This document shows positions 9,411-32,403 of a DNA stretch of 42,000 bases, in pieces. A model generated the notes under the pieces. The model saw only the letters and a program-made list of their open reading frames with translations. It was not told the DNA's origin and did not search any database. Source of the stretch: Mustelus asterias (Eukaryota). Where the stretch lies: assembly GCF_964213995.1 (NCBI RefSeq), contig NW_027590818.1:124001-166000 (forward strand), read 5' to 3'. The translations under genes were made by a program, and so were the position numbers. The first letter of the stretch is position 1. The number at the start of each line of letters is the position of its first letter.

Positions 9411-9445
9411 ATGTTTTATTCGCATTATTTCTATGTCTATTAGGA

Positions 9446-10353
9446 TTATTTCAATCGTTTAAATATCAGACAGAATGGGTATGTCAGCCAAATCTTTAAC
9501 TCCTCCCTTACTTTACTCTGGGTGCCTGCGTAAATGAATGGGTTAATGCAGGAACTCAACAGCTGAAGCATATACCCACCTTCGTCCAGAATAAAATTCG
9601 ATTGATTGTAATTGGTGCCCGAGAAATAGCTAACGTTCGCAATTTGGACACAGAGAAAAGTTGTAATTACTAACGAATATAACAAGATGAAACTTCCAGA
9701 GACACAGAAGAGTAAAACAATCGACTTTCGCCTCTTCTCCACTTCAGGGTCTCTCTGATTCTCTGCATTGCTTTGATCCAAGAGTCTGCTCCGGGCTCTG
9801 TTGGCTATAACGATGTGCCTTACGGTCAGTGCATTAAACAGTAAAATCAAAATGAATGGAAGACAAGGATTTAAGATGACGAAAATCCAGTCAAATGAGA
9901 CCCAAGCAGCTGTTGTGTAATATGTTGTTTTTAAGTTGCAGTACCATGGTGTCTCATCGATGAAAAATGCAGGCTCATAGATAAAGTACAGCGGGATATT
10001 TCTTACACTGTTCAGAGCGCAGGCAGTTCCAATAACCACAGCTGCTGTTTTTTCTGTGCAAAATTTGGTTTTCAGTTTCTGACAACAAATCGCAACAAAT
10101 CGATCAAAGGTGAACGCGACGGTGACCCAGACAGATGAATCCCTGACCCCATAAATCAGCATAAGACTAACACGACAGACCGGAGTGATGGACAGGAAAC
10201 TGAATTGGAAATAAATACCTATAATCCGGTTAACTATTACAGCAGTGATGATTACGAGGAGATCCGTTACAGCCATGAATACCAGGTAATAAGTGATACA
10301 TTTGGAAAGGCCACATCTTCCTCGAGGTAGGATCACAATCACTGCCAAATTAG
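9446..10353 (-). CDS. GPR139/GPR142-like class A GPCR, gene 1, exon 2 (spliced protein 325 aa)
   Basis: Acceptor TTTTTCCTGTCACAG then phase-1 (A)NLAVIVIL; open through TM7 with MAVTDLL, TPVC, FTFDRFVAIC, WYC, SSCINPFIY. Confidence 0.92.
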
Positions 10354-10929
10354 CTGTGACAGGAAAAACAGCATGTGAATAATGCTAGAAAATAAGGACA
10401 GAACATAAAATATTGCAATGACTCAGAAGTCGGGAAATCATTGCAGAGAGAGCAGTTTTAGCATATCAGGTGGATTACCTGCCTCGTAACTGGAGGAAAT
10501 AAAACCACTCAATGCACACAGCTGCTGGCATGTTGCTGCAATATTAGGAAGATTTTTGTTTCTCTCATATGGCGGACACTGAACTTGGTACTTTGCAGAT
10601 CATTGGCAGGAAATACAATTAATTATCATCTGTCTCAAATTGTAGAGAAGAACAAAGATAAGAAGAGTCATTGCGAATCATTGCGAATTCGAATGGGCTC
10701 TAATACTATATTGACCAAGGAATTGGGCAGAAAGACAATATATGACATTGAGTGTTAAAGAAGGGAAATGTTTCACACAAAATAAAAACAGAAAGAAACG
10801 ATGACTGAAATATAAACGACCCATTTGCTTGGGAAGAGCTCGACTCCTGATTGATAATGATCACAAACTAATATATCAATAATTTGCATAAACCAATAAA
10901 GAAACTCAACATGTAAATATCTCATTGCA

Positions 10930-11062
10930 GGTCAGTCAGCAGTACCCTCGCTTCAGACCTGGAAGGTTCTAGTTTCATGTGCTCTTCCAGGGCTCGAGCA
11001 ATATAAGATTGTTGCACTTCCAAGGCTGCCATATTTGAGCCATGATAATTAAGCCAGAAGCC
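10930..11062 (+). mobile_element. Decayed tRNA-derived SINE (SacSINE1/DeuSINE-like)
   Basis: Degenerate head GTACCCTCGCTTCAGA...GAAGGTT...TCCAGGGCTCGAGCA; recognised from recall of the family. Confidence 0.4.
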
Positions 11063-11724
11063 AATGAATAAAATAGTCATGGACAATTTCAGCTATTTGG
11101 CAGAAAGCTTCCACATTCAAGCGCTGGGACCAAGGTGCGCGATGGTAACATTGAGCAGCTGTGTCAATAACAGAATGGTGCTAAACCAGGTGCAACAACG
11201 CCCACATAGCAACAATGACAAGTATGCAATTGAAACTCAATTAAACTTCAATGACAACCAATAGTTCACCGAGAGAAATTCTGTCGCCAGTATAAAAGAA
11301 TTATCTTTATACCTTGAGCTGGAAGTAATAAATAGAAGAAATACACAATTGCAAGGATACAATGATACTCATCATGGGACGATAGTATAACAGCACGTTA
11401 AGCAACCTTTGTGGTTCAGTGAAGAAATTACACCATAAAAGTGGAGAAAAGTCACTAATAATGTAGTGTAATTGTGTCAATAAAAGGGATAAGTTATGTT
11501 GTTGTTCAGAGCGTGAAAACGATTGAAGTGGGAAAATGATACTATCTCAGCTGCATTGAGTGTCCCATTAAAAGCCAAATATTGCCCGATTAATGAGGGA
11601 AAAGAATATACCTGCTGTCTAGAAGCAGTTCTTATATATGACAGAAGTGATAGAGTAACGTCAGATATGAGAGAAAATATTAGACAATTATATTCACAAT
11701 GAATAAGTAGTAAAATTACTGTAC

Positions 11725-11794
11725 CTGGAAACCCAACAGCTGCAAGGATAGGATAGTAAATTGCAAACAGCAGACCTTTTGGTATTCCATGCAT
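11725..11794 (-). CDS. GPR139/GPR142-like GPCR gene 1, exon 1
   Basis: 70 nt, MHGIPKGLLFAIYYPILAAVGFP + G, donor GTACAG; same length and phase as exon 1 of gene 2. Confidence 0.9.
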
Positions 11795-11844
11795 TTCAAG
11801 CACAAACTGAGAATTTGTTTTGCACAACCCCGAAAGATTGTCAC

Positions 11845-11906
11845 ATTTATACCAGATCTCAGTCTCAGCGGACATAATTACATGGTTTGATGTTGCACAT
11901 TAATTG
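11845..11906 (-). promoter_or_regulatory. Proximal promoter of GPCR gene 1
   Basis: CAATTAA...TAATTA-TG-TCCGCTGAGA...TATAAAT 57 nt before the ATG; aligns with 29380-29440. Confidence 0.6.
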
Positions 11907-12358
11907 CACATGTTCGTTTAATATCCAACATCACCCTATGATGCTGCCGAAATTGCTGGTGTTTTCCTTTTAATTTAATAGACATTTTATTGAAAAGTTC
12001 ATCCAGCAGTTGCCAGGTAGAGTAAACAACTAGATAAAACTCCACTTCAAAAATAAAGTTATACGAGCAATGTGGAACGTTTTTTGTCGAAACAACTCTG
12101 ATGTGGAACCAACATATTGTACTGTATGATTGCTAGGTGATAACGTATAGCCCAACAGGCCGTTGCAAAAGTGAAATAGAGAGTTATGCATAAGGAGTCC
12201 ATCAAGGGTAACTCAAACCAATTCAGCTGAAGGTATAACTGACCAGAAGTCCGAAAGGCAGATGTAACCAAGTTCGAGATCCCGATCATTATTGACAGAG
12301 CGTAATCACCGATCAAACTGCAATGTGGGCCCAGATCTATCTGAAACCTCGACCCGGA

Positions 12359-14120
12359 ATCACAGAACAACAGAATAATACAGTGCAGAAAAGACCCTTC
12401 CGCCCATCGAGTGTGTACAGACGCATGAAAGGCCCTGACCTGCCCATCTAATTCCAATTGCAAGCACTTAGCACATAGCCTTGTATGCTATGGAGTGCCA
12501 TGTCCACATGCAAATATTTTGTTTTGAAGGATGTGAGGCTTCCAGCCTCTACCAACCTCCCAGGCCGTGCATTCCAGACCGTCATCACGCCCTGGGTAAA
12601 AATAAATGGTCCTCAAATTCCCCCTTCACCTCCCACCTCACTTTTAATTTGCGTCCTCTCGTAACTAACCCTTCAACAAAGGGGGACAGCAGCCTTCTAT
12701 CCACCTCGTCCATGTCCCTCATAATTATGAACAACTCAATCAGGTCGCCCTTCAGTCTTCTCTGCTGCAGAGAGAAAAACTCAAAGCCTGTCCAACTTCT
12801 CTTTATAACTTAAATGCTCCATCACAGGCAACATCCTCGTGAATCTCCTCTGCACCCTTTCCATTGCGATCACATCCGTCCTATAAGGTGGCGACCAGAA
12901 CTGCACAAAGTACTCCAGCTGCGGTCTCCCCAAAGTTCTATACAACTCCATCATGACCTCTCCACTTTTGTAATTTATACCGCGATTGATCAAGGCGAGG
13001 GTGCCACATGCCTTTTTCATCACCCTATGAACCTGCCTTTCCGCCATCAGAAATCTACGGAAAAATACGCAAGGCCGCTTTCTCTTCGGAACTTCCCAGT
13101 GTCAGATCTTTCATAGGACACTTCCCTGTCAAATTACTCCTTCCGAAGTGTATCACCTCACACCTTTCAGGGTTAAATTCCAACTGCCACTAATCAGCGC
13201 ATTTGGCCATCTCGTCTATATCTTACTGTCCCCCAGACACTCAACCTCACTGCTAACCACCCGGCCAATCATTGTGTCATCAGCAAACTTACTGATTTTA
13301 TCCCCCATATATCAATCTATGTCATTTATATCAATGACGAACGATTGGGGGGCCAACACGGACCCCTGTGGTACGTCACTGTTCACTGGCCTCCCCACAC
13401 TAAAGCAGTCGTCTGTCATCACCCTCTGTCTCCTATCGCTAACCCATTATGAATCCACCTTATCAGATCACTGTGTATCCCGTGTGCACTCTTAATAAGT
13501 TACCTATGTCGGAGTTTGGCAAAGGCTTTGCTGAAATGCATGTAAGCTACATCAACGACGCTATCCTTAACACTTGTTTACATGCTCAAACAATTCAATC
13601 ACATTTGTTAGGCATGACCTCGCTCTGACAAAACCATGCTGACTATCTCTAATCGTACGTTACCTCTACAAATGGAGATGGATGATCTCGTTCAAAATCT
13701 TTTCCAGCAGTTTCCGAACCACAGACGTAAGATTCATTGGTCTGTCGTTCCCCCATGCTCGCCTTTCTTTTTAAATAGTGGGACCACATTAGCTCTTCTC
13801 CAGTCCACTGAGACCTCTCCGGTGGCCAGCGGGCAATTTCCTGCGTCGCCTCCCACAACAGCATGGGTCACAATTCATATGGACCTGTTGACTTGTCCAC
13901 TTTTAGCCCGCCAATTCCTTCCATACCTTGTCACTCCATATGATAATTTGCTCCAGAACCTCACAGTCTCTCTCCCCGAGTTTCATAACTACCTCTTCAT
14001 TCTCGTGGGTGAAGACCGATGTGAAATATTCGTTTAACATCCAACAACTGGCCTCTGCCTCCACCAACGGATTTTCCCATTTATCCTTAACAGGCCGTAT
14101 TCTTTGCCTGGGTACCCTGA
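12359..14120 (-). mobile_element. CR1 LINE, older and frameshifted
   Basis: RPQLEYFVQFWSP and LNEYFTSVFT remnants; 3' UTR at the left end. Confidence 0.9.
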
Positions 14121-15413
14121 GCAATTCTGCCCCTTTAAAATTCTGCGATAAAATTTCACTTAGAAATTTTAGAGAATGGAAACTTTGTTATGTTCCTGTC
14201 TCACTTTGTATATTCCAAACTCATATGTTGCAAAGCAGAGAAATGCATCTTGCTATTCATTCAGTGCTTCTGATTTTGAAAATATTCTGGACAATACAGC
14301 GATTCACAGGATATATAATGATCCACACACACTCCAAATGAACTTATTATAAGAAGCACAGAGAAAGCCGGACCTGAAAGTGCAGGAGAAATTGTTCACT
14401 TCATATCTTAATTAGCTGAATTTAGGAATTCAAACCCTGATTTGCATCCCACCTTTAATATAATGTTCACGTTCAATTGCAGTTTAGACATAGAAACATA
14501 GAAAAACTACAGCACAAATAGGCCCTTCGGCCTCACAAGTTGTGCCGAACATATCCCTACCTTCTCGGCCTACCTATAACCCTCCATCCTATTAAGTCCC
14601 ATGTAATCATCCAGGAGTGTCTTAAAAGTCCCTATTGAGTTTGCCACCACCACCACTGATGGCAGCCGATTCCACTCGCCCACCACCCTCTGTGTGAAAA
14701 ACGTCCCCCTAATATTTCCCCTGTACCTACCCCCCAGCACCTTAAACCTATGTCGTCTCGTAGCAGCCATTTCCACCCTTGGGAAAAAGCCTCTGAGAGT
14801 CCACCCGATCTATGCCTCTCAACATCTTATATACCTCTATTCGGTCTCCTCTCATCCTACGTCTCTCAAAGGAGAAAAGAAGGAGCTCCCTCAGCCTATC
14901 CTCATAAGGCATGCCACTCAATCAAGGCAACATCCTTGTAAATCTCCTCTCCACCCTTTCAATCATTTCCACATCCTTCCTGTAATGAGGCGACCAGAAC
15001 TGAGCACAGTACTCTAAGTGGGGTCTGACGAGGGTCTTATATAGCTGCATTATTATCCCCGGACTCGTAAACTCAATCCCTCGATTGATAAAGGCCAGCA
15101 CACCATACGCCTTCTTAACCACCTCCTCCACCTGCGGGGCCGATTTTAGAGTCCTATGGACCCGGACCCCAAGTCCTTCTGATCCTCTACAGACCACAAC
15201 GCATTGATCTGGGTTGAAGTCCATCTGCCACTTCTCCGCCCAGTCTTGCATCCTTTCTATGTCCCTCTGTAACTTCCCTCATCTCCCTCATCCAAGTCAT
15301 TTATGAAAATGACAAACAGCAACGGCCCCAGAACAGATCCCTGGGGCACACCATTGGTGACCGACCTCCATTTAGAAAAAGACCCATACACACTCTCTGG
15401 CTCCTTTGGGCAG

Positions 15414-15782
15414 TCATGATGTGGAGATGCCGGCGTTGGACTGGGGTAAGCACAGTAAGAAGTTTCACAACACCAGGTTAAAGTCCAACAGGTTTATTTG
15501 GTAGCAAATACCAAAAGCTTTCGGAGCAGAGCTCCTTCGTCAGATGGAGTGGTTATCTGTTCTCAAACAGTACACAGACACAGAAATCAAATTACAGAAT
15601 ACTGATTAGAATTACTGATTGCATTCTAATCAGTATTCTGTAATTTGATTTCTGTGTCTGTGTACTGTTTGAGAACAGATATCCACTCCATCTGACGAAG
15701 GAGCTCTGCTCCGAAAGCTTATGGTATTTGCTACCAAATAAACCTGTTGGACGTTAACCTGGTGTTGTGAGACTTCTTACTG
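15414..15782. mobile_element. Penelope-like fold-back element (family B), young copy
   Basis: ~161-bp inverted arms (15452-15612 / 15623-15783, about 4 mismatches, 10-nt loop); 12-bp TSD TCCTTTGGGCAG at 15402-15413 and 15783-15794; AATAAA in each arm. Confidence 0.85.
15688..15724 (+). ncRNA. Minimal type I hammerhead ribozyme motif
   Basis: CCAT-CTGACGA-A-GGAGC-TCT-GCTCC-GAAA-GC-TT-ATGG: stem I CCAU/AUGG, intact core, 5-bp stem II, palindromic AGCU in place of stem III. Confidence 0.75.
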
Positions 15783-17619
15783 TCCTTTGGGCAGGCCAGT
15801 TCTGGCTCCACAGGGCAGCAGCACCTTGGATTCCATGCCCTCTCACTTTTGCTAGAAGCCTTGCATGGGGGACCTTATCGAACGCCTTGCTAAAATCCAT
15901 ATAAACCACATCTACCGCTTTCCCTTCGTTAATGTGTTTAGTCACGTTTTTGAAGAACTCCACCAGGCTCGTAAGGCAAGATCTGCCTTTGACAAAGCCG
16001 TGCTGAGTATTCTTGAGCATACTAAACCTCTCTAAATGCTCATAAATCCCGTCCCTCAGCATCTTCTCCATCAGCTTACCAGCCACTGAGGTTAGACTCA
16101 CCGGTCGGTAATTTCCTGGGCTATCCCTATTCCCCTTCTTGAAAATAGGAACCACATCCGCAATCCTCCAGTCCTCCGGCACCTCTCCCATCTCCATTGA
16201 TGACGCAAAGATCATCGCCTGAGGCTCTGCGATCTCTTCCCTCGCCTCCCACAGTAACCTGGGGTACATCCCATCCAGACCCGGCGACTTATCTATCTTG
16301 ATGCCATTCAAAGATTCCAGCACAACCTCTTTCTTAAAGTCCACATACTCAATCTTTTCAGTCCACCGCAAGACCACAGTACATCCACCCAGGTCCTTTT
16401 TCTCTGTGAAAACCGAGGCAAAATACTCATTAAGCACCTCTGCCATTTCTACTGGTTCTGTACAGACTTTCCAACCTTCAACGTTTATCGGCCCTATTCC
16501 TTCACGTCTCATCCTTTTTCCTTTCACATATTTATAGAACGCCTTAGGGTTCTCCTTAATCCTACCTGCCAAGGCATTCTCGTGATCCCTTCTGGCTCTC
16601 CTAATTTCCTTCTTTAGTCCCTTCCTACAAGCCGTATACTCATCTAGATCCCTATCTTCGCCAAGCTCTCTGAACCTTTTGTACGCTTTCCTTTTCTTTG
16701 CGACTAGGTCCCGCACAGCTTTCGTGCAACACGGTTCCTTTAACCTACCAACACCTCCCTGTCTGCTCGGAACATTGTCCTGTAGAACTCGAGACGGACA
16801 TTCCTTGAAAAACTGCCACCTCTCTTCACTACATTCCCCGGGAATACCTCCTTCCAATTTACTCCTCTAATTTGCGGCCTTATGTCTTCATATTTCCCCT
16901 TACACCATATAAACGCTTTCTGAGCTAGCCTGATCCTCTCTTTTTCCAATGCAAGCACAAAGGTGATAGAGTTATGATCGCTATCCCCAAGATACTCTCC
17001 CACTGAGAGATTTGACACCTGTCCAGGTTCATTGGTCAGTATCAGATCAAGTACAGCCTCTCCTCTTGTAGGCTTCTCCACATGCTGTGTTAGGAAACCC
17101 TCCTGAACACACCTAACGTACTCCTCCCCATCCAATCCCCTTGCCCTAGGGATATTCCAATCTATGTTTGGGAAATCAAAGTCTCCCATCACAACAACTC
17201 TGCTATTACTGCATCTCTCCACGAGCTGTTTCCCGATCTGCTCCTCCACCTCCCTGTTACTATTGGGCGGCCTGTAGAAAACTCCCAGCAAAGTGATCGA
17301 CCCCTTCCCATTCCGAACTTCCACCCACAGAGACTCTGTAGACAATCTCTCCACAGCATACACCTTCTCTACAGCTGTGATTCCCGCCTTAGTCAATGCG
17401 CAACCGTTATCCTACCAGTGGCTGCTGCAAAGTAACTTCGTCAGGTGGTTACTTCGAATTGCTTTCTTCCTCAGAAGCGACTGTCCGAGCTCTTTAGAAC
17501 AATGTTGGTCTAAATAAAGGGTGATTATACTGTTGCAAAAAATGTATGAAGCGTCAACTTCGCTGCAAAAGAATGTTGTAATTCGAGAAGTTCCGTTTCC
17601 ATTCGTTCATACAATGTGA

Positions 17620-17842
17620 AAATCGCTGGCAAGGCCAGAATTTGCTGCCCATCCCTAATTACGCTTGTCAGAAAGTAACAACCCAGCACATTGTGATGGC
17701 TCAGGAGTCACTGGCGAACAGATTATTGCGGATGGCAGATTTCCTTCGCTAAGTGAGATTAGTGAGACTCGTGCGTTTTTATAACAACGAATGATAATTT
17801 CATAATTACCATCCCTGCGACCAACTTTCAATTCCAGATTTT
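17620..17842 (-). mobile_element. Decayed SINE sharing its tail with the old LINE family at 905/2327
   Basis: TCGCTGGCAAGGCCAG...GCCCATCCCTAATT...GGATGGCAGATTTCCTTC...TTTCAATTCCAGATTT. Confidence 0.5.
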
Positions 17843-17899
17843 AGTACCATGTGTCGATAAATGAGAAAACTGTGTAATAAACTTGGAATGTTTAACATT

Positions 17900-18720
17900 G
17901 GAAATTTGGACAGAGGAGGCAGCTAAAGTGGGAAAGGGATTCAGTTCTCACAATGTGTGCAGGATAACGTTCTAACTCACTTAAAAATGACATCCCAGGA
18001 AGTGAAAATCAACTATTGGATGTTATGATGGAGAATTAACCCGTGTGAATAAATGAGTAAGAGTAGGAGGGAAATAAGAAGACAATACTCACCATAAAAT
18101 ATTAAACTTAAACTTCCAGGGAGCTACATTCAGGGACAGATTGCAGCTCGGGACGGGAGACTGGAATGGCGGCGATTACATTAAATAAAATCCTGCGCCA
18201 GCATTCGACAATGCAATCGGTTAAATTTGCTCATAACTAAAAAGAAACTTGCACAATAAAATGACCCATCGAAAATGCAGAATGTGCTATAGGTATGAGC
18301 GAGATGGGACACCAAATGTACTGGGGTGGAAACTTCAAATAAGTAAGCGTACTTTAAGCATATCCGGAACAGTTGATAAGCAGTATTGGGCTGTATTTGT
18401 GAAGGAAAAGTGAACAACAAATGAAAAAAAATCAGAGAAAAATAAATTGGTGTCGATGATAATGAAATAATATTTAACAAAGTGTACGTGAAAATAGATA
18501 ACTCTTTAAAGCAATGAATGACAATGTAATGCAGCAATGAGCGGGAAACAAGCACATTTATTAGCAGGAAGATGAATATCAATGCAAGTAGTAAATTCAC
18601 ATTCGTCGGGCCAGATATTCCTGTCAGTACGACTGGCAGATTTATTAATGACACTGTTTTTCTCACTCTTTCCTGTCTGACGAAGAACTGAATTAAATTT
18701 GCGCGAAAAACTCCTCAAAT
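17900..18720 (+). mobile_element. Heavily decayed CR1 ORF2 fragment (endonuclease region)
   Basis: Remnants resembling CVQDNFL, LDLV and DH motifs in purine-rich sequence. Confidence 0.5.
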
Positions 18721-18754
18721 CTGTTCCCCAGGTTTGTGGTTGAAGTGAGAGAAT

Positions 18755-18771
18755 GCTACCACCTGCTGGCG
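18755..18771 (-). promoter_or_regulatory. Possible CTCF site
   Basis: Reverse complement CGCCAGCAGGTGGTAGC; motif match only. Confidence 0.35.
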
Positions 18772-19609
18772 GCTCACAGATATTGCAGGATCGAGCCTTT
18801 TTGAGTTTCAGAGAAGTTCAGTGACTCCATGGTTGCTTCTGCGAAGCGGTTCCTGAAATTTGAATACTGAAATGCATCGTTAGGGATGGATGTTTTCAGC
18901 AGGAGCTCGTCTGCTGCGTTCCAGTGTTTTGTCGCAGTCCATTGTGACGTGAATAATTTCAGGAGGATGTCCCGAATATACTCCCCTAATCTCAATAAAT
19001 TGACCACCAGGAGCCCCTGGCTCCAATGCTTTCCAGTGAATCATCAAAACCAACATTCGCAACTTCCACTTCTTAGCTGTAACCCTTCCCAAACATTTTG
19101 ATCTATTTTACTCAGAGTTTGTTCTTGCATTTAATATTTTCTTGCATTGTGACCTCATTTTCAAATCAGATCCACTTCAACATCCAACACATCGACTTCC
19201 TTCTTTTGAGAAAATGAGAAATTCGCGAGAAATCAGTCAATGTCCAAGGGGGTGTCTCCATACTGCGCAGCTTGCTGATGGCTGAGGAGGCTAATCCTCG
19301 GATGCCGATTCTGACACAAGTGCTGGAATGAAGCTGCCTGGTGTGTTTGTGGGTTAATGCTTTTTCCTTGGCATCTCTTTGCAAACCGCTATAACCACTG
19401 CCAATCTTGGTGATGCACTGCACCCAAATGGAAGTGTCGCCATTCTGTCTGGGGTCAGTAAGTGTAATTCCGGTACGAAAATCGATACCGTGGATATCTG
19501 TATCACACTTACAGGCATGAAAAAGCAAGAACTATGAGCTGTTATGTCTGATCTTATCTCGGCATAAACAACATTTTCCGACGCGCTCAATCTCGTCATT
19601 TCAACCCTT

Positions 19610-20020
19610 GCTAATTAAAAATCTCTCTATCATCTCTCATCATCTCTGTTTTAAATCGCCAACTCCTTATTCTGAAGCTATGACCTTTCGTTCTACATTG
19701 TCCGACAAGATGAAACATCCTCTCTAAATCTATTTTGTCAATCCCCATTTTCACCTCGTAGACCCTAGTTAGATCTCCTTGCATTCTCTTAAATTCCAAG
19801 GACTACAGGCTTAAACTTACAAATCAGCCTTCAGGAGACAATGCGCTCAACTGTGGAATCAATCTGGCAAACCAGCTCTGAATGACCTCAATTTAACTAC
19901 ATCCCTCTTCAATTGAGGGGATTAATACTGTACGCTATATTCTAACTGTGGTCTCACTAATGCTTTGTCCAATATCAGCAATCCTTCATAACTTTTATAT
20001 TCTATTTCGATAGCAATGAA
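19610..20020 (-). mobile_element. Decayed CR1 3' ORF2 fragment
   Basis: EFKRMQGDL...TKGHSFRIR; RPQLEY remnant. Confidence 0.8.
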
Positions 20021-20438
20021 TCTCACAACTGCTTGAAATTAAGGCCTGAAAATCTTGCCGACGAAATATTAGAATACTTTTCAAATGATGCACGGTAGGC
20101 CGAAGGGGCAGTAATTTGGAGAACAGGATTTGTCTTTTTTTTCTCGTGGACAGGACATACTTGGAATATTTTCCACATTTTCTTTTGTGTCAGGAATGGA
20201 ATTGCTGGTACATTTGTATGGCTACTTGGAGACAACGGTCTGCATTATCGCTGCCCAGATGCAGCCACGTCCCATAGTCGCTTCTGTACACAGAGCCATC
20301 AACCGTTTGTTGATAGCACGTGGACCAAATAATATTCGCAGAAGTTTGAAACTAATGATGCTGCAATCCGCGGGAGTCGGAACAGAGAAAATCTCGAGTA
20401 TCCAATGCAGTATAAAACAGTGAGAAATTGCAAATTGC

Positions 20439-23400
20439 AAAGAACTCAAACGAGGAATTAGAAGGGCAAAAAGGGGTCACGAAATGTCCTTGGCAGACAG
20501 GATTAAGGAGAATCCCAAGGCATTTTATTCATACGTTAGGAACAAAAGTGTTGTCAGGGTAAAAATCGGACCTCTCAGGGACAAAAGTGGGGAATTATGC
20601 TTGGAGCCCAAAGAAATAGGGGAGATCCTAAATGAATACTTTGCCTCGGTATTCACAAAGGAGAGGGATGTGTTGACTGGGAGTGTCTCGGAGGGGAGTG
20701 TTGAACCGTTGGAGAGAATCTCCATTACAAGGGAGGAAGGGTTAGGTTTGTTAGACAATATAAAGACTGACAAATCCCCAGGGCCTAATGGAATCTATCC
20801 AAGGCTGCTCAGGGAGACGAGAGATGAAATCGCTGGGCCTCTGACGCAAACCTTCGTCTCGTCACTGGATGCAGGTGAGGTCCCAGAGGATTGGAGGATA
20901 GCTAATGTGGTCCCGTTATTTAAGAAGGGTAGGAAGGATAACCCGAGTAATTATAGGCCGGTGAGATTGACGTCCGTGGTGGGGAAGTTGTTGGAGAAGA
21001 TTCTTAGAGATAGGATGTATGCGCATTTAGAAAGGAATAAACTAATTAACGATAGTCAGCATGGTTTTGTGAGAGGGAGGTCATGCCTCACTAACCTGGT
21101 GGAGTTTTTTGAAGAAGTGACCAGAATGGTTGACGAGGGAAGGGCCGTGGATGTCGTCTATATGGACTTTAGTCAAGCGTTTGACAAAGTCCCTCATGGT
21201 AGGCTGGTGCAAAAGGTTGGATCTCATGGGATAAAGGGGGAGGTGGCTAGATGGGGGGAGAACTGGCATGGTCACAGAAGACAGAGGGTGGTAGTGGAAG
21301 GGTCTTTTTCCAGCTGGAGGCCTGTGACTAGTCGTGTTCCGCAGGGCTCTGTATTGGGACCTCAGCTGTTTGTGATTTATATAAACGATCTGGAAGAAGG
21401 TGTAACTGGGGTGATCAGTAAGTTTGCGGACGACACAAAATTGGCAGGACTTGCAGATAATGAGGAGCATTGTTGGTTAAAAAGAAAAAGGAGGCTTATG
21501 TTCGGATGAGACGTGAGCACTCGGGTAGTGCACTAGAAAGCTTTAGATTGGCTAAGAGGGAGTTGAAGAGCGAGCTTAGAAGGGCTAAAAGGGGACATGA
21601 GAAGACTTTGGCGGATAGGGTTAAAGAGAATCCTAAGGCGTTCTATAGGTATGTCAAGAACAGAAGGTTGGTTAGGGCAAGTTTAGGGCCAGTTATAGAT
21701 GGCAGAGGGAAGTTATGTGTGGAACCGGAGGAGATTGGTGAAGCATTGAACCAATATTTCTCTTCGGTGTTCACGCAAGGGGACATGAATATAGCTGAGG
21801 AGGACACTGGGTTGCAAGGGAGTAGAATAGACAGTATTACAGTTGATAAGGAGGATGTGCAGGATATTCTGGAGGGTCTGAAAATAGATAAATCCCCTGG
21901 TCCGGATGGGATTTATCCAAGGATTCTCTGGGAGGCAAGAGAAGTGATTGCAGAGCCTCTGGCTCTGATCTTCAGGTCGTCGTTGGCCTCTGGTATAGTA
22001 CCAGAAGATTGGAGGTTAGCGAATGTTGTCCCATTGTTTAAGAAGGGGAACAGAGACTTCCCCGGGAATTATAGACCGGTGAGTCTCACTTCTGTTGTCG
22101 GCAAGATGTTGGAAAAAATTATAAGGGATAGGATTTATAGTTATTTGGAGAGTAATGAATTGATAGGTGATAGTCAGCATGGTTTTGTGGCAGGTAGGTC
22201 GTGCCTTACTAACCTTATTGAGTTTTTTGAGAAAGTGACCAAGGAGGTGGATGGGGGCAAGGCAGTGGACGTGGTATATATGGATTTTAGTAAGGCGTTT
22301 GATAAGGTTCACCATGGTAGGCTTCTGCAGAAAATGCAGATGTATGGGATTGGGGGTGATCTAGGAAATTGGATCAGGAATTGGCTAGCGGATAGGAAAC
22401 AGAGGGTGGTGGTTGATAGTAAATATTCATCATGGAGTGCGGTTACAAGTGGTGTACCTCAGGGATCTGTTTTGGGGCCACTGCTGTTTGTAATATTTAT
22501 TAATGATCTGGATGAGGGTATAGTTGGGTGGATTAGCAAATTTGCTGATGACACCAAAGTCGGTGGTGTGGTAGACAGTGAGGAAGGGTGTCGTAGTTTG
22601 CAGGAAGACTTAGACAGGTTGCAAAGTTGGGCCGAGAGGTGGCGGATGGAGTTTAATGCGGAGAAGTGTGAGGTAATTCACTTTGGTAGGAATAACAGTT
22701 GTGTTGAGTATAGGGCTAACGGGAGGACTTTGAATAGTGTGGAGGAGCAGAGGGATCTAGGTGTATGTGTGCATAGATCCCTGAAAGTTGGGAATCAAGT
22801 AGATAAGGTTGTTAAGAAGGCATATGGTGTCTTGGCGTTTATTGGTAGGGGGATTGAATTTAGGAGTCGTAGCGTTATGTTGCAACTGTACACAACTCTG
22901 GTGCGGCCGCACTTGGAGTACTGTGTGCAGTTCTGGTCCCCACATTACAGGAAGGATGTGGAGGCTTTGGAGAGGGTGCAGAGGAGGTTTACCAGGATGT
23001 TGCCTGGTATGGAGGGGAGATCCTATGAGGAGAGGCTGAGGGATTTGGGATTGTTTTCGCTGGAAAGGCGGCGGCTAAGAGGGGATCTTATTGAAACATA
23101 TAAGATGATTAGAGGTTTAGATAGGGTGGATAGTGATAGCCTTTTTCCTCTGATGGAGAAATCCAGCACGAGGGGGCATGGCTTTAAATTGAGGGGGGGT
23201 AGTTATAGAACCGATGTCAGGGGTAGGTTCTTTACCCAGAGGGTGGTGAGGGATTGGAATGCCCTGCCAGCATCAGTAGTAAATGCGCCTAGTTTGGGGG
23301 CGTTTAAGAGATCCGTAGATAGGTTCATGGACGAAAAGAAATTGGTTTAGGTTGGAGGGTCACAGTTTTCTTTTTAACTGGTCGGTGCAACATCGTGGGC

Positions 23401-24312
23401 CGAAGGGCCTGTTCTGCGCTGTAATGTTCTATGTTCTATGTTCTATGTTCTATTGTCAGAAGCTACAGAAGGATATAGATAGGCTGGAAATTTGGGCAAA
23501 GAAATGGCAGATGGCGTTCAATCCTGATGAATGCGAAGTGATGCATTTTGTTAGAAATAATGTAGGGAGGAGCTATACGATAAGTGGCAGAACCATAAAG
23601 GGTGTAGATACGCATAGGGACCTGGGTGTGGAAGTCCACAGATCCTTGAAGGTGACGTCACAGGTGGAGAAGGTGGTGAAGAAGGCATATGGCATGCTTG
23701 CCTTTATAGGACGGGGCATAGACTATAAAAGTTGGGGTCTGATGTTGCAGATGTATAGAACGTTGGTTCGGCCGCATTTGGAATACTGCGTCCAGTTCTG
23801 GTCTCCACACTACTAGAAGGACGTGGAGGCTTTGGAGAGAGTACAGAGGAGGTTTACCAGGATGTTGCCTGGTATGGAGGGGCTTAGTTATGAGGAGAGA
23901 TTGGGTAAACTGGGGTTGTTCTCCCTGGAAAGACGGAGGATGAGGGGAGACTTAATAGAGGTGTATAAAATTATGAAAGGCATAGATAGGGTGAACGGTG
24001 GGAAGCTTTTCCCCAGGTCGGTGGTGACGTTCACGAGGGGTCATAGGTTCAAGGTGAAGGGGGGGAGGTTTAACACAGATATCAGAAGGACATATTTTAC
24101 ACAGAGGGTGGTGGGGGCCTGGAATGCGCTGCCAGGCAAGGTGGTGGAGGCGGACACATTGGGAACGTTTAAGACTTATCTGGATCGCCATATGAACGGA
24201 GTGGGAATGGATGGATACAAAATAATGGTCTCGTTTAGACCAGGGAGCGGCACGGGCTTGGAGGGCCGAAGGGCCTGTTCCTGTGCTGTATTGTTCTTTG
24301 TTCTTTGTTCTT
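20439..24312 (+). mobile_element. CR1 LINE (outer copy), split at 21473/23452
   Basis: ORF2 rejoins as ...DNEEHC|QKLQKDIDRL...; one internal stop (TAG near 23814); (TTGTTCT)n tail. Confidence 0.95.
21474..23451 (+). mobile_element. CR1 LINE (inner, young copy) with an uninterrupted ~625-aa RT-containing frame
   Basis: All RT motifs intact ([16 protein letters not shown]); (ATGTTCT)n tail; TSD ATTGT at 21469-21473 and 23452-23456; 5'-truncated, no endonuclease. Confidence 0.97.
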
Positions 24313-25272
24313 AAATCACTGTTCCGCCTCAATTTACATTTAAAAGTTAAAATGTAATTGGTAAATTGGCTATAATTATATTTCCTCCACTTTCATGGGA
24401 ATGCATCTTCCGAAAAGTAATTTATCACGTTATCTCAATTGAAAAGGAGACCAAAAGTGTTAGGTAAACTATTGCTTCTCAATTTTGAAAAGGAAGTTGG
24501 ACAAATGGTTTCATTGGAAGCGCGTTGGTTGTCGTGTCAATTACACTGAATGAGCCATTGTTTGTGGAAGATAGTGGGGTGCTTCCCAGGACAAGTCAAA
24601 AGTTCCTGTCCTTGTAAGAGGAAGAAAAACTGAGAATATTAATATGCGAAGTAGGGTGGGGATTCCACAGCTCTGGTGTCCATCAACCAGGGTAGGATGA
24701 ACACTCGTGGCTTAGATAAATATTGAACTGTTGGAAATGGTAACACGGCTGTATAATCGGCCCAATAACTATCTAAATGAAGGAAATGCGAGCAGAGAAC
24801 ATAAAATGCGAGAGGGAAAAGAATGGGAGAAAGTGCAGCTAAGGAAGCAGTCGGATTTACAGGGCGATTTAGTGGATAATAATTACCAACTTCTAGCAAG
24901 AAATATACAAGGCAAAATCAATCGAAAGTGCGGAAAATTTAGAGATCAACATTGGGAAGGATTGGAAAGGGAATATTTTGGATGCAATTGAGCAATATTT
25001 CAGTATTGTTTGTAAGAGTGGGAAACAACACTGAGTTAAGGACATTTTAAACACAGCGTGAAGGAAATGTTGAGCAGGGCTAGAACAGGAATGAAATAAA
25101 ACAGATATAGCGCAGATATAGCTATGTCCTTACACATAGCAATGCCTATTTATTCAATCAATTGATTGTTTTTTTTTAAAGGGTAAAATCTTCAATGTGA
25201 CATTTTCTTCCAATACTCCTGGGTCTGGTCATCAGCAGAGTCACGATTAAACTGAGAAATTAATAGGTAGAG

Positions 25273-25452
25273 GAGAATACGCTGGAAAATCTCAGCAGGT
25301 CTGGCAGCATCTGTAATGTTTTGACACAGTGTCAGCTGGACTCGAAACGTCAGCCCTTGTCTCTCCTTACAGATGCTGCCAGACCTGCTGAGATTTTCCA
25401 ACGTTTTCTCTTTTGGTTTCAGATTCTAGCGTCCGCAGTAATTTGCTTTTAT
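25273..25452. mobile_element. Penelope-like fold-back element (family A)
   Basis: GCTGGAAAATCTCAGCAGGTCTGGCAGCATCTGTAA and its inverse; spacer GACTCGAAACGTCAGC (degenerate hammerhead). Confidence 0.7.
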
Positions 25453-26214
25453 AAATTAATAATTGGACTTGTTTCAACCGACATGTAACCACTCTGAACA
25501 AGACGCACCTTCACTGAATACAGCAATACAGAACAATCGCTGTTCAAATGCAATATATTTGAGCTCATAAAGCTGATTTGCACAATCATTGGAAACTTGT
25601 CCTAACGGTCCCGTGAGTACTGAATGCAACAGGAGGCTTTAGGAGATTCCATAAACTGAATTTCAAAGACAAAATGCCGGAACCACTCAGCAGGATTGAT
25701 AATAACTGTGGCAAAATATTTCGTGCTCGTTTGATTGAGAATCCCAGCAGTTTTGTCTTTAATTTCAGAAGATATGTATAATCTCAGTGACATGAACCAA
25801 ACCATTCAGTCAATGATGGCGTTCTGCACCACTGGCCACTTTGGAAAAAACAAACTCATCAAACCATAGTAATGAATTTTGTAATCGGGCCAATGTACTG
25901 TGGGTGTAAACAATGTCTGATGTGTTGGTCTACATTTAATGTCACCATGTTGAACTGAATCAATTCATACAGAATCTAACTCCTTTAAACTGAACAGCGC
26001 TTTGCAAAAATCAATGAAATGTACTGAACCGACAGTGTTAGCCAGAGAAAAACGGTGGCCTAAAGAGCAGATCAGAGATGAGAAAACGTCCGGGCCAGTA
26101 ACTCAACTCTTGCTTCCACAATTAAAGTCCACAATCTATAAGGCACAAGGGTTGTGATGCAGTGCGCATGTCTGACGCATGCAGCTCCAACCAAGCTCAT
26201 AAATGTCAACACCA

Positions 26215-26460
26215 TCGACTCCCAGCTTGGGTCGCTGTCTGTGCGGAGTCTGCACGTTCTCCTTGTCTGCGTCAGTTTCCTCTGGGTGCTCCGGAGTCCT
26301 CCCACATTCCTAAAGACGTGCTGATAAGGTACATTGACCGTGCTAAATTTTGCCTCAGTGAATCCAAACAGGCACCGCGGTGTGGCGACTCGGACATTTT
26401 CACAGTAACTTCATTGTAGTGTTAATGTAAGCCTACTTGGGACAATAATAAATAAACTTA
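26215..26460 (+). mobile_element. 5'-truncated V-SINE with MER6-like tail
   Basis: V-domain core as in HE1, but tail GTGGCGACT...TTTTCACAGTAACTTCATTG.AGTGTTAATGTAAGCCTACTTG...AATAAATAAAC. Confidence 0.65.
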
Positions 26461-26559
26461 AAATAAGTTGTTGGACAAAACTCTCTATCCAACATCTTAT
26501 GACCCATATCCTTCACAAGTGTCGCACACGAGAACACTGTGTGTTCGCTCCCACATGCA

Positions 26560-26900
26560 CTGCATTCATTCGCCAAGCTTCCTTCGACAACACAATGTAA
26601 ACCAGCGATCGCTAGCACTAAGAAGGACATGGGTTGTGGACAAATGAAAACAGCACCACCAGCAGAATTGGACATGAACCAGAAATGATCCTGACTTGGA
26701 AATCTGTCGTTCTCCATGGCTGTTGAATCAAAATCCCACAACGCCCTTAAAACAGTGATGCTTGTTTCATTTCTTTCAGGACCTCGGTGTCGATGTCCAG
26801 GCCTGGAGTTTTGTCACCCGCACCTGATTGTTCTTGGGAAGGGGGCAATGAGCCACTTTCTCGAAAAGCTGGAGCCCATAGACACACAGGCCTTTGAGGG
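26560..26900. mobile_element. Decayed fragments of the old LINE family (plus 26560-26750, minus 26790-26900)
   Basis: TCCTGACTTGGAAAT...TCAAAATCC corresponds to the reverse complement of 2440-2500. Confidence 0.5.
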
Positions 26901-28178
26901 ACGGATTGCTCTTTCTGCATTGCGCGTGTAGTTAGACCACGTCGACAGCAACAGTTTAAGAAGAAAACAAACCACCAACTTCTGTAAGGCAATTCTAAAT
27001 GGTCAATAAAACTGATGACTTACGCAGCGATAACCACAATTAGTGGAAGAGTTCTCAAAAGCCTGTGACCACGCTGACCACTCTGAAGCGCACTTTAAAA
27101 TTGATGAATCTTAACTGCCTGCATGTAAATTAATTGTTACAATCCGGATCTCCGTACACAGAACAGAAAATGACGCAACTCATGTTGCATCTAGCTGCAC
27201 TGAGAGTTGCTGTAATAATCTGCAAGTGACCGAACTGGAATTAATCATAATTAATAGCAACCTGCTATTAATGCCACTCTATGCCACTATCCTTGAATGT
27301 ATTTGATCCAGAATGAATTGGCCAAAATTGCGAAATATCATTATGCTGAAGAAGATAAGTATACATGGAATTTACAGGCATTGAGGAGAAGTCGGCACCC
27401 AAAATAACGGTGCTGAAATGGGCATTAGTAGAATGAACCCAGCTGTGTTTTGTTGGAGCTGCTCATTGTAAATTGGTGTTGTTTGTATTGAATATAACAG
27501 CACGCTCCAGGTCTTTGGAAACATGGCGACAGGAGTAGATCATTTGATCCTGTCCAGCTTGCTACGCCACTCAATTAGTTAATGGATAATAATCTACCCC
27601 AATTACCATTGGCGAATGGATACCAACGTATCCTATAACCGTGCTGACCTGTTCAGTCCACATAGACTTTAAGATGTTGAACCTCATCTGTCCACATTTC
27701 AATGAAACGTGACAACCGAGACCTCACAACAAGAAACACAGGTGCCAAAAACGGACACTGAGTCTGTTGTACTCGATGTAATTGCATTGAAACACACCTG
27801 ACCACATTACGTTAGCATAGCAGAAAGTGCCCTGCCCATATTCGATGCGGTCTTGCCTGGTATGATTTTGCCAACATTGAATAGAAAAATACGAGCCTGA
27901 AATTGTGTACATCGAATTTCACCAACTTAAATTAGAAGATTGAACTGACAGATAGTGAATAGTACATGTCAGCAACAAAAATATAAGTACCAGCTGGACA
28001 TGTTTGCACTGAATTCAACTGTGCTGTCATCGAGCTGGTCACTATGAATTGCACTGGTATATGTCCAATATGATGGCACCCTCCAGGGCAATATCAACAT
28101 ACGGACAGGAGTAGGTCATTCGGCTCGTTATCCTGCTCCGCCATTCAATTAGATCATGGGCAATTATTTACATCAACA

Positions 28179-28685
28179 TCACCTTCCTGGCAGGGGTGAA
28201 ACCATGATCATGCAGGTGGTTCGCCCAGGACGAGGCTAGCCCGTTTCAATTAAGGTGTGCTGACACCTACGATGCCCCCAGATGCGGTATACTCGACTGA
28301 AACATTTGTAGTACTCATAGAATCATAGAATCATAGAAACCCTACAGTGCAGAAGGAGGCCATTCGGCCCATCGAGTCTGCACCGACCTCAATCCCACCC
28401 AGGCTCTACCCCCACATATTTTACCCACTAATCCCTCTAACCTACGCATCCCAGGACTCTAAGGGGCAATCTTTTTTTTTAACCTGGCCAATCAACCTAA
28501 CCCGCACATCTTTGGACTGTGGGAGGAAACCGGAGCACCCGGAGGAAACCCACGCAGACACGAGGAGAATGTGCAAACTCCACACAGACAGTGACCCGAG
28601 CCGGGAATCGAACCCAGGACCCTGGAGCTGTGAAGCAGCAGTGCTAACCACTGTGCTACTCGTTGCTGCGCTTGCGCTAAAAAAA
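28179..28685 (+). pseudogene. U1 snRNA pseudogene (probable retrocopy), split by an HE1 SINE
   Basis: 28179-28313 colinear with U1 (CCTGGCAGGGG...ACCATGATCA...AGGTGGTT..CCCAGG.CGAGGCT...TGTGCTGAC...ACTCGACTG...ATTTGT); after the SINE, CTGCGCTTGCGCT followed by A7; embedded in a decayed CR1 3' UTR. Confidence 0.85.
28317..28656 (-). mobile_element. HE1-type V-SINE, young copy
   Basis: Well-preserved head and core, (CTATGATT)n tail, TSD TACTC. Confidence 0.92.
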
Positions 28686-29379
28686 CACAGCCCTACGCCA
28701 TTTCCATATTAGTTGATGTCATCAACTCCCAGAAATCAACCGATTTATCTGCCCAACTGTTAAGTTTCCACAACTCTGTAGTGGAGAAATCTAGAATAGT
28801 GGAGTATATACCGCGAAAGGCTCTGGGTGTAATCGTTGTTGGTGGAGATTGATGGGCGGAATGGCCTCCTTCTGCATTGTACGGATTCTATGAAATATAT
28901 TCTATGATCCACTCTCTGAGTGAAGAAACGTCCCATAATCTCAGTGTCAAATTATTTACCCCGTTATCCTGAGATTAAGTCCCCCGGTTTTAGATTGTAA
29001 GTCTGCATCGCATTAATTGTTGAATAAGTCACTATACCTCGAGTGTAACATTACTTAACTGTACCTGACCACAGTGAATACAAAGGGTGCAAATTCTTGG
29101 GGAGATTCACAACGTGCGTACATGTGATCAGTGATCGCAGGGACATGATAATTAACAAAGCATGAATTTGGCATCATTTTGCTAAGAACATTTCCAGTTC
29201 TGTTGGCCTGACCCCAATATTAAGATGCTAATGGTTAGCTAATGGAAACAAGTATAACTGAGATCCTTCTTACTTTCTTGACAATTCGCATTAGAGCTCT
29301 GTTAAGTCTCAATTCAACCCCATAAAACAAAAACACCAAATAAACAGGAGCTGGACTCATCTGATTGTTACAATAACTT

Positions 29380-29440
29380 CAATTAAGACAAAAGTTAAGA
29401 CGACTAATTAAATCTCTAGAGCCTGTTATGGAGTATAATT
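29380..29440 (+). promoter_or_regulatory. Proximal promoter of GPCR gene 2
   Basis: CAATTAA...TAATTA-AA-TCTCTAGAGC...TATAATT 55 nt before the ATG; aligns with the gene 1 promoter. Confidence 0.6.
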
Positions 29441-29488
29441 GCGACTATTTTCAGGGAATTGCAGAAAACGCTCAGAGTTTTGACAGAA

Positions 29489-29558
29489 ATGCACGCAATA
29501 CCGAAAGGTCTGGTGTTTGCCATTTACTATCCTGTCCTTGGGGCTATAGGGGTTCCAG
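29489..29558 (+). CDS. GPR139/GPR142-like GPCR gene 2, exon 1 (not in the ORF track)
   Basis: 70 nt, MHAIPKGLVFAIYYPVLGAIGVP + G, donor GTATGA. Confidence 0.9.
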
Positions 29559-31092
29559 GTATGATATTGTAATTTTGCAGTTAGTTAATAGCTAATTATC
29601 GTTCAGCTCCATCAATGCTGTCTTTGTATTCACATCACTTCTTCAAGTTACATACGTATTTGCTTGTGTTTAATCCCTCCAGCGATATAAATTGTTTTAT
29701 TTGAAGGATATACATTATTTTTTTAAGTACAATTCTTTATATGTAACTGCATTAACTCGTCTTTTTAAAAGTACATTATCGGGCGTTTGTGAATATAGTT
29801 TAGCGTAATTAACGTTAAAGTTTCAAACCTTGAATGTTTTCATTGGACCTATTTCCCCACATAGTTTCTTCACTTGAATGCACTTTTCACTGACACCATC
29901 TTCCTCCGATAGTTATTATTTAATCGCGGCACTTATAGAATTTCACCAATTTACTTCTCAGATCTCAGTGTGTATCTTCAATTTTATTGTTTAATAGAAC
30001 CGCTAGAATGGATTAATTAGCTTACTATTAACACCGTATAAATGCAATTCATTTTTTTTATTTTCAGAACTGTAGACGTTATTATGGTTTTATTTAGATC
30101 CCTTGTGATTGTCCCAAATAGTCAATTCTGACATGGCTATCACAGAGTCAATGGACTGGCATTGTATTCTCGGTGCGGTTCCTTGCAGTGACTTTTAAAC
30201 TTTCGTATCACGTTGTTTTTGTAGATTTATTGTTGACACGTGTAGTGAAGCAATAATTCCCTCAAATAATTCAACAATTGAGAAGATTGAACCACTGAAT
30301 AATCCCAAATTGAATTGTATCAAATCGTTTATTTAAGGAACGTTAGGAGGCATGGCGGTTGACAGACATGTAAGCAATATAATTGTTGCCCTCTAATGGA
30401 TGACTGATATTACCCTTCACTCACCGAACTCAGTGCTCGTATTCTCAGCCGCTAACGCTTATAGACACTGGATTTCTCATGAAGAGAGCTCCAGTTTGCC
30501 CCTGCATAGCACATAAAATGTCCCCGGCAATTTCACAGAAATTTTCATTGTTCATTCTCTTCCCTGGGATGGTATTTTTGTGCAAGTTTATTCCCAACCT
30601 TTCGAAAACAAGTGAATGATTTTACATTACTTAATTGATAGGACCTGTTTTACATCGACTGTGAGATATAATCCGTGACATTGTTACTTTCCAATCTCAT
30701 TTTTGGCTGGTTTGCTGTTTATCTACTGTAATTTTTTTTCTTCTTTTATTTGTTGTGGATATTTTGGTACACCTCCCTTTTTATTCTTTGCATTCTGTCG
30801 GCCGCGTTCAATCCTGCTCTGTCAGTAGTGATATAAATTTGATTTCTTCTAATCGTTTATTTGGGCATCATGGAGAATTTTGCATGATTATTCTATTGCC
30901 CTATCTAATTATCTAATAAAGATGACTTTTTCAAAACAAGTAAGGAATTGTCCAGAGCGGAATGACTCACATCCAACCTAATATCAAATCATAATGCTTT
31001 ACATTTCACACACAATACTAAAACACTGTTGATTTTATTGCCATTCGAAAAACTAACTCTCTCTGTTTTTTTTCTCTCTCCCTTTCTTACAG

Positions 31093-32003
31093 CCAACTTG
31101 GCAGTGATTGTGATCCTGTCTCGAAGAAGATGCGGTCTCTCTGGATGTGTCACTTATTACCTGGTTTCCATGGCGGTAACGGATCTCCTGGTGATGCTCA
31201 CGGCTGTAATATTAAACCGAATTGCTGGCATCTATTTCCCCTCTAGTTTCCTGTCTATCACACCAGTTTGCGGTATTCGTGCTGTCCTGAATATCACAGC
31301 AATGGACAGTTCTGCCTGGTTAACGGTCGCTTTCACCTTTGATCGATTTGTGTCCATTTCCTGTCAGAAGCTGAAATTAAAATATTGCACAGAAAAGAGA
31401 GCGATGCGTGTAATAGGAATCGTGTCCATTCTGGCCTGTGTAAAAAATATCTTCCTATATTTACAATTTGAACCTCGGTATATCATTAATAACGTACCCT
31501 GGTTCTGCATGATAAGAGGAATAATTTATACATCACCAGCTTGGGCAGCGTATGACTGGATCCGTTCCACTTTAACCCCTTTTCTTCCTTTCATTCTGAT
31601 TGCATTGCTCAATGCTCTGACTGTCAAACACATTCTAGCGGCTAATAGAGCCCGCAGGAGACTCCGGACCCAGAGCAATGGAGAGAATCAGAGTGACCCA
31701 GAGGTGGAGAAGAGGAGAAAGTCCATTGTTTTACTCTTCGCCATCTCGGGCAGTTTCATCCTATCTTATTTGTTATTTTTTATAAACATCCTCTTTGTGC
31801 GAATTGCTAAAGTTACTTATTTCTCGGGTTCGAATTTCAGTAATTCCACGTTCATTCTCTCTGAGACTGGATATATGCTCCAGCTCTTGAGTTCTTGTAT
31901 CAACCCCTTTATTTATGCTGTGACCCAGAATAAAATCAGAGATGAGTTAAAGAATGGGATGAAATATCCACTGAACGTTTTTGTAAAAATATTTATGTCT
32001 TGA
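31093..32003 (+). CDS. GPR139/GPR142-like class A GPCR, gene 2, exon 2 (spliced protein 326 aa)
   Basis: Long polypyrimidine tract + CTTACAG, phase 1; (A)NLAVIVIL, MAVTDLL, TPVC, FTFDRF, WFC, SSCINPFIY; no disruption. Confidence 0.93.
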
Positions 32004-32272: not shown

Positions 32273-32403
32273 ACTGTCCAGTTCAATAATTTGATCTGTT
32301 AATATCCAGCTCCCTTACCAGTGCTGATTTGATATTTGTGCATTCCCATCTGCCTCGAGGGCGCTGGAGGACAAAAGCCCGAGGAAGCAAAGTGTAGGCA
32401 ATA

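Follow-up and report, generated by a model that had tools for sequence, protein, structure and literature searches.

The window analysed here, a 42,000-nucleotide (nt) stretch of the genome of the shark Mustelus asterias (RefSeq assembly GCF_964213995.1, contig NW_027590818.1, positions 124,001 to 166,000 of the forward strand), holds two complete two-exon genes for seven-transmembrane receptors, referred to below as gene 1 and gene 2. These genes, and the far larger receptor family to which they belong, are our subject.

11725..11794, minus strand: gene 1 exon 1, 70 nt, phase 1, from the ATG to the GT donor; start codon, short N-terminus and first half of transmembrane helix (TM) 1
10354..11724, minus strand: gene 1 intron, 1,371 nt, GT..AG
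9446..10353, minus strand: gene 1 exon 2, from N1.50 to the stop codon, with TM1-TM7 and helix 8; Pfam 7tm_1 at 69 bits
29489..29558, plus strand: gene 2 exon 1, 70 nt
29559..31092, plus strand: gene 2 intron, 1,534 nt, GT..AG
31093..32003, plus strand: gene 2 exon 2, from N1.50 to the stop codon; 7tm_1 at 84 bits

The gene pair

Both frames are open, encoding 325 amino acids in gene 1 and 326 in gene 2, with 209 of 326 aligned columns identical (64%), and in both genes the phase-1 intron splits the Ala codon of GxP|AN directly ahead of N1.50 (residue position numbers throughout come from an alignment and may be off by one in TM5). The segment DPEVEKRRKSIVLLF is unchanged between them. Both proteins score well beyond the curated 7tm_1 cut-off of 30.5 bits, with no other Pfam profile at E ≤ 0.01, and both have N1.50, D2.50, C3.25, D/E-R3.50, P5.50 and NPxxY while lacking P6.50; by these features they are class A (rhodopsin-like) receptors of the G protein-coupled kind (GPCRs).

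Exon and intron coordinates bear out what a first-pass annotation, made from the letters of the window, had described: a 70-nt exon 1, a phase-1 intron at GxP|AN and intact frames. That annotation had also placed the intact frames amid transposons, and reverse-transcriptase frames of long interspersed nuclear elements (LINEs) do lie between the two open genes; it had pointed to Tyr in place of the TM6 Trp and to a missing TM6 Pro, and both genes have Tyr6.48 and no P6.50, as a trait of their subfamily only. It had set conserved intracellular segments against a more divergent TM3, extracellular loop 2, TM5 and TM6; the two proteins differ at 16 of the 29 TM positions that face the pocket, at 17 of the 43 others in the outer half and at 15 of 81 in the inner half.

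The genes stand head to head, their start codons 17.7 kilobases (kb) apart and facing away from each other. This layout does not amount to a shared promoter, because the gap is repeat-rich DNA, each gene has its own TATA element and the intergenic spacing varies among duplicates of the block that carries the pair; a bidirectional promoter was rejected on these grounds. Local tblastn found no third family copy within the window, and the 50 kb that precede it on the contig (C786) contain none either; the window reaches the contig end.

Family size and relationships

A degenerate, exactly matched TM3 pattern has 1,874 matches in the assembly and an exact TM7 pattern 1,492, with no match to the reversed control of either, and the family has at least about 1,900 copies in the assembly. 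All 60 retrieved TM3 matches, taken from the first 100 listed (scaffolds C3, C4, C5 and C8), are family genes, 42 of them with an intact exon 2 (the 18 assigned by tblastn were scored as not intact); so are all 20 retrieved TM7-only matches, 16 with an intact exon 2. The combined sample, drawn from first-listed scaffolds only, comprises 80 members among 80 matches, with an intact main exon in 58, so that about a quarter of the sampled copies are broken. In their shared range the TM3 and TM7 lists have 33 matches in common among 73 and 100; the union of the two extrapolates to ~2,900 copies and capture-recapture to 3,300-5,700, values that are rough because the motifs track subfamilies. Protein searches of the genome matched at least 130 (130/130) and at least 131 (131/131) scored candidates, the scored rows being taken from ~5,800 unvalidated first-look candidates. 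The clusters sit on chromosome-scale scaffolds. The expanded family proposed in the first-pass annotation is, by the motif counts, one of thousands of copies, not a few.

The window pair belongs to a subfamily whose motif has 153 genome matches, and for which we assembled a set of near loci (60 were retrieved, at least one of them twice, and three were removed because of stops or a framing error) with Tyr6.48 in 56 of 57 and NPxxY in 57 of 57. The wider family instead has Trp6.48 in 41 of 42 sampled genes, NTxxY in 39 of 42 and P6.50 in only 7 of 42, and Tyr6.48 was rejected as a family hallmark for this reason. Nearly invariant across the sampled genes are R3.50, P5.50, N5.58, a basic TM6 start and Y7.53, and the cysteine pair linking C3.25 to extracellular loop (ECL) 2 is kept in the family.

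Beyond this species, 1,716 clusters of the protein collection (90% identity) match at E ≤ 1e-3; among the 120 listed, 119 carry names, all of them shark and mostly 'probable GPR139'. A profile search returned 130 clusters at 50% identity with E ≤ 1e-30, and the family members looked up include a stingray and skates. Judged by homology, sharks and rays carry many relatives of the window pair. One whale shark RefSeq model (P0065) joins C2H2 zinc fingers to a family receptor and is probably a gene-model fusion of neighbours.

The relationships of the family were inferred from two trees. In a 66-row tree (two partial proteins excluded; three unnamed, presumably invertebrate proteins as outgroup; no lamprey or hagfish), all 49 rows from sharks and rays fall into a single clade (97/97) with a salamander gene as its sister (100/99); next outward lie two low-copy lineages, each with a shark ortholog, then amphioxus, with GPR139 and GPR142 outside, so that the family nests among low-copy orphans of fish, coelacanth and amphibians. 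A 30-row tree supports the family at 86/92 and its union with the salamander gene at 100/99, and approximately unbiased (AU) tests on it reject a grouping of the family with GPR139 and GPR142 (p=0.004) or with GPR139 (p=5e-33).

These results bear on the reading implied by the database names, namely that the genes are duplicated GPR139/GPR142 orthologs sensing Trp and Phe. Several features are shared with GPR139 and GPR142, which are class A orphans activated by L-Trp and L-Phe (PDB 7VUG, 9M42; PMC5430874): a wider clade, N5.58, a short N-terminus, the 7tm_1 profile, and a phase-1 intron ahead of N1.50, whose acceptor AG stands two bases short of that codon in shark GPR139, in the GPR142 candidate and in both single-copy relatives discussed below. 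However, this genome has a true GPR139, which matches the human structure at E=1.8e-159, and a GPR142 candidate, so named from its tree position, each at a locus of its own and in one copy against the thousands of the family. A TM7 motif led to the two loci; alone it proves nothing because its control gave 3 matches. The window genes share only 19-23% identity with GPR139 and GPR142 (22-23% with GPR139), and a PDB sequence search placed human GPR139 near the bottom of 27 matches (E=7e-4). GPR139 activation by agonists needs F3.33, H5.43, W6.48 and N7.38 (PMC5430874); at these positions gene 1 has Y, F, Y and Y and gene 2 I, R, Y and Y, so that neither keeps any of the four. P6.50 and NFxxY are missing as well, and the C3.25-ECL2 cysteine pair of the window receptors is absent from shark GPR139. 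Orthology to GPR139 or GPR142 fails on phylogeny and on these features, and we regard it as extremely improbable; going by the trees, the family is a lineage separate from both despite its names. The first-pass view that the pair is no single-copy GPR139 ortholog is upheld, whereas the link to aromatic amino acids that it drew from a GPR139 motif is weak.

By description, the closest named relatives are the GPR210 orphans, although the Ensembl identifiers of the paper that defines them could not be matched. Rinne et al. (2019, PMC6504862) described GPR210A, GPR210B and a third unnamed subtype, none of which has a human ortholog, beside GPR139 and GPR142 in coelacanth, gar and other fishes. Three comparable low-copy lineages surround the shark family in our tree, and in each of two of them this shark has what looks like one ortholog; the available text of that paper mentions sharks zero times and reports no expansion, and the direct sister of the shark family is an amphibian gene. 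The two shark orthologs (L123, G000:C25:56717627-56718637; L124, G000:C5:28699655-28700542) have the same phase-1 intron as the family, belong with low-copy fish, coelacanth and amphibian orphans of GPR210 type, and have relatives that are also labelled 'probable GPR139'. A search for the sister lineage returned 22 matches: 20 amphibian clusters, each from a different species, with one listed cluster per species and 66-74% identity to the query; one shark; and one sturgeon relative at 46%, known from the search and outside the tree. No amniote was among them. The amphibian gene (P0219, P0296-P0315) occurs in frogs, including Xenopus tropicalis, in salamanders, whose members are the sister of the shark expansion, and in a caecilian.

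The nematode Srw family is an invertebrate expansion of FMRFamide-receptor-like GPCRs, and the Atlas neighbours of the window proteins bear FMRFamide-like and Srw labels. A receptor expansion of FMRFamide-like type in the snail Lymnaea (PMC11589774) also comes from the same ancestral peptide-receptor group; the shark expansion is independent, took place in vertebrates and is much larger. Such kinship could favour a role in reproduction or internal peptide signalling, in germ cells or as neuropeptide receptors from an FMRFamide/MIP-type ancestor: GPR139 has been described as kin of FMRFamide, MIP and proctolin receptors (PMC12208981), the snail expansion is linked to reproduction (PMC11589774), and the single-copy relatives are conserved as receptors for an internal ligand would be. 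More than 1,000 intact, pocket-diverse paralogs, with a quarter of copies broken, are not readily explained in this way, and we consider such a role improbable.

Ligand-facing variation, promoters and candidate functions

Across the family, the half of the receptor that faces the G protein is conserved and the half that faces the ligand varies. In the wide sample, pocket positions have higher entropy than the remaining outer ones (by residue p=0.02, by chemical class p=0.005), whereas in the window subfamily the pocket does not exceed those other positions in variability (p=0.42 and 0.08); the variation around the ligand pocket claimed by the first-pass annotation holds for the wide sample and is not significant in the subfamily to which the pair belongs. 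The subfamily pocket is acidic: all 29 sequences keep D3.37, 27 of them keep D5.39, and position 7.36 is E or Q, which suggests cationic ligands. A predicted structure of low confidence (mean predicted local distance difference test (pLDDT) score 61, predicted template modelling score 0.52) has a peptide-receptor-like ECL2 hairpin, and a fold search with it matches class A structures and resolves nothing finer, with GPR139 ranked 27th.

Codon models were fitted with our own code on fixed trees (F3x4, naive empirical Bayes). Purifying selection predominates, with omega 0.255 in the subfamily (30 sequences) and 0.35 in the wide sample (41 sequences), and the family is constrained as protein. In both sets omega is 2-4 times higher in the outer than in the inner halves of TM3, TM6 and TM7, the TM5 difference being small. 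The site-wise dN/dS check called for by the first-pass annotation gave a divided answer: the wide sample has selected sites (M2a vs M1a p=3e-5; M8 vs M8a p=1e-4), ~2% of positions near omega 1.9, the top ones in ECL2 and ECL3, a signal that alignment gaps may inflate, whereas the subfamily has none that is firm (M2a vs M1a p=0.88; M8 vs M7 p=4e-5; M8 vs M8a p=0.10). ECL2 sites 128 and 142 rank at the top in the subfamily set also.

A compact block of putative control elements precedes each gene of the pair:

11846..11880, minus strand: gene 1 promoter block; homeodomain-type site, degenerate EBF-like site and TATA box 57 nt before the ATG; putative function
29405..29439, plus strand: gene 2 promoter block; homeodomain-type site, EBF-like site and TATA-like box 55 nt before the ATG; putative function

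In 13 of 18 genes TATAAA occurs 30-130 nt ahead of the ATG; the rate in intron windows is 4%. In the 60 nt upstream of the TATA box, a homeodomain-type site is found in 10 of 17 promoters (introns 12%) and, under a relaxed pattern chosen after viewing the data, an EBF-like site in 9 of 17 (introns 7%). The two sites abut at fixed spacing, 11-29 nt ahead of the TATA box, in 14 aligned subfamily promoters, and blastn found no match between the window introns and the 20 stretches compared. A pattern built on the block has 39 genome matches against 4 for its control, and 29 of 30 retrieved matches precede a family exon 1 (27 assigned by script with a GT donor, the other two being a previously found gene and its twin; the remaining match is unrelated). 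Mouse OR promoters are enriched in O/E, homeodomain and TATA sites (PMC3247239), and mouse OR enhancers are driven by an adjacent, spacing-sensitive Lhx2/Ebf composite (PMC5608512). In a pyrimidine/purine reading the shark spacer equals that of the one mouse composite compared. The likeness of the shark block to olfactory control elements is imperfect, and we take it as a hint, not proof. A recently multiplied branch of the subfamily (L162, L163, L165, L171, L173, L175-L178, L182-L184), in which Ser replaces the conserved Pro of TM1 where exon 1 ends, also has the best EBF-like promoter match.

Taking these observations together, the window genes are intact members of a class A GPCR family expanded in sharks and rays, and we lean towards the view that this family is a large repertoire of sensors for external chemicals. 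The chemosensory or immune-sensing repertoire proposed in the first-pass annotation is supported in part, as regards the expansion and its separateness from GPR139; the sensory or immune role is putative. A more specific proposal, which we offer tentatively as somewhat less probable than its negation, is that it forms a fifth vertebrate olfactory receptor family of one to several thousand genes, evolved independently in sharks and rays from a peptide receptor of GPR139/GPR210 type and under an Lhx2/EBF-type promoter. On the view of external sensors, a homeodomain and EBF-type factor pair would be likely to switch each gene on in sensory neurons, probably sparsely; the predicted ligands of the acidic subfamily pocket (D3.37, D5.39, E7.36) are cationic small molecules, amino acids or short peptides; and their binding may be passed to a G protein by way of DRF, N5.58, a basic start to TM6 and Y7.53, all of them intact. 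In the shark nose the pathway would be the Go/TRPC2 microvillous one. The family resembles the OR, TAAR, V1R/ORA and V2R repertoires in its large clusters, many pseudogenes, compact genes and variable outer half, and the homeodomain, EBF-like and TATA block may be a further likeness to vertebrate chemoreceptor repertoires; the family is set apart from them by its own clade, its 7tm_1-only Pfam result and its GPR139-type and FMRFamide-like nearest relatives, those repertoires standing outside our tree.

Much of the same evidence would suit immune or barrier sensing, on leukocytes or on skin or gut epithelia, of microbial or damage-derived peptides and metabolites, in the manner of the expanded FPR- and MRGPR-type families. 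Clusters with birth-and-death turnover and selected extracellular-loop sites fit this equally well; the low-confidence model (mean pLDDT 61) has a peptide-receptor-like ECL2 hairpin, the C3.25-ECL2 cysteine pair is conserved, and EBF1 is a B-cell factor. However, thousands of copies exceed known immune GPCR expansions, the homeodomain, EBF-like and TATA arrangement resembles olfactory control elements, and the relatives are GPR139/FMRFamide-type rather than chemoattractant receptors, so that we hold an immune role to be unlikely.

Several points weigh against a chemosensory repertoire. The window subfamily has neither a more variable pocket nor firm positive selection, and its copy count contains assembly duplicates, with 92 of the 153 subfamily motif matches on contigs C87 and higher. 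The strict EBF pattern occurs in only 2 of 17 promoters (introns 1%), the relaxed patterns were fitted after the fact, the block is common by descent, and both window promoters carry a degenerate version that misses the 39-match pattern. EBF and homeodomain factors are also active in B cells and in many other neurons. Conservation of the amphibian sister gene, at one listed cluster per species, fits an internal ligand. In the best EBF register, the shark spacer is 2 nt where one readable mouse composite has 1 nt (PMC5608512). Catshark olfactory neurons are reported to be almost all microvillous, with robust V2R expression (PMC10116579), and a top-50 list for catshark brain and olfactory epithelium holds no GPCR, V2Rs being missing from it too (PMC11979771). 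On expression itself, no RNA data set with gene 2 was listed; the four runs that were listed cover the intron and have no splice joint, look like DNA for that reason and are silent on the matter, and the supplements of PMC13188829 and PMC12318234 have no 'receptor 139' rows.

The gene models are already in RefSeq under automatic names, and the expansion itself appears to have been overlooked. Our search of the open literature, which leaves aside subscription journals and supplements that may mention the family, found no published account of it, and term look-ups in the available text of shark genome and chemoreceptor papers (PMC11979771, PMC10620051, PMC8455134, PMC6368271, PMC10116579) did not return it. 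These papers count 65 catshark chemosensory genes in total (PMC6368271), explain the low number of shark receptors as sensitivity gained at the price of discrimination (PMC10116579) and describe cartilaginous fishes as relatively poor in GPCRs (PMC8455134). That last view is at odds, whatever the function, with a GPCR family labelled 'probable GPR139' whose genes number in the thousands and are constrained and pocket-diverse; were they a fifth olfactory family, it would exceed most mammalian OR repertoires in size, and the idea that sharks rely on only a few dozen receptors for smell would be overturned. The question of how sharks smell becomes directly testable with existing catshark tissue RNA, and the conserved amphibian sister gene, found in Xenopus tropicalis, gives a workable way to approach the ligand and tissue of the ancestral receptor.

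Duplicated block and repeats around the pair

The pair lies within a segmental duplication, with the LINE frames between the two genes:

4660..36527, no strand: segmentally duplicated block with both genes, recurring at 96-99% identity in two places on C71 and also on C108 and C138
15754..23350, no strand: LINE reverse-transcriptase frames between the genes, at 15754-16866 (minus) and at 20424-21509 and 21464-23350 (plus)

Contig C90 also holds the gene pair, by protein match, and the duplicate blocks carry differing repeat insertions; if the assembly represents one diploid animal, the six versions of the block would stand for three or more real loci. The family has multiplied by tandem and segmental duplication. 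On scaffold C8, motif matches recur every ~90-100 kb (G000:C8:28.58-29.43 Mb), a spacing suggesting that a large duplicated unit, carrying two family genes, is repeated there in tandem.

On this evidence the family could owe most of its size, as a by-product, to segmental duplication driven by transposons and to redundancy in the assembly, with a modest functional core and the rest dosage or drift. The high identity of the recurring blocks is in keeping with this, as are a premature stop in one duplicate copy of gene 1 and the reduction of the window subfamily's 57 near loci to 30 when clustered at 98% identity and to 22 when clustered at 90%. However, the 42 sampled intact genes (from C3, C4, C5 and C8) still form 38 clusters at 90% identity, with a median pairwise identity of 47%; 29 of 31 matches to a sub-pattern lie on C5-C77; omega is 0.26-0.35; and the profile search resolved the 130 clusters at 50% identity mentioned above. 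Redundancy weighs on the count of the window subfamily and less on that of the family overall, and we think the by-product account quite improbable, slightly more so than a reproductive or internal peptide role.

Large parts of the LINE region (15754..23350) are missing from the duplicate copies of the block. The frame at 21464-23350 on the plus strand, with 628 open codons and an RVT_1 match at E=2e-36, is missing from the four duplicate blocks compared and is therefore likely to be a recent insertion. Further along the window, at 38097-38584, a 246-bp unit stands in two tandem copies with 88% identity.

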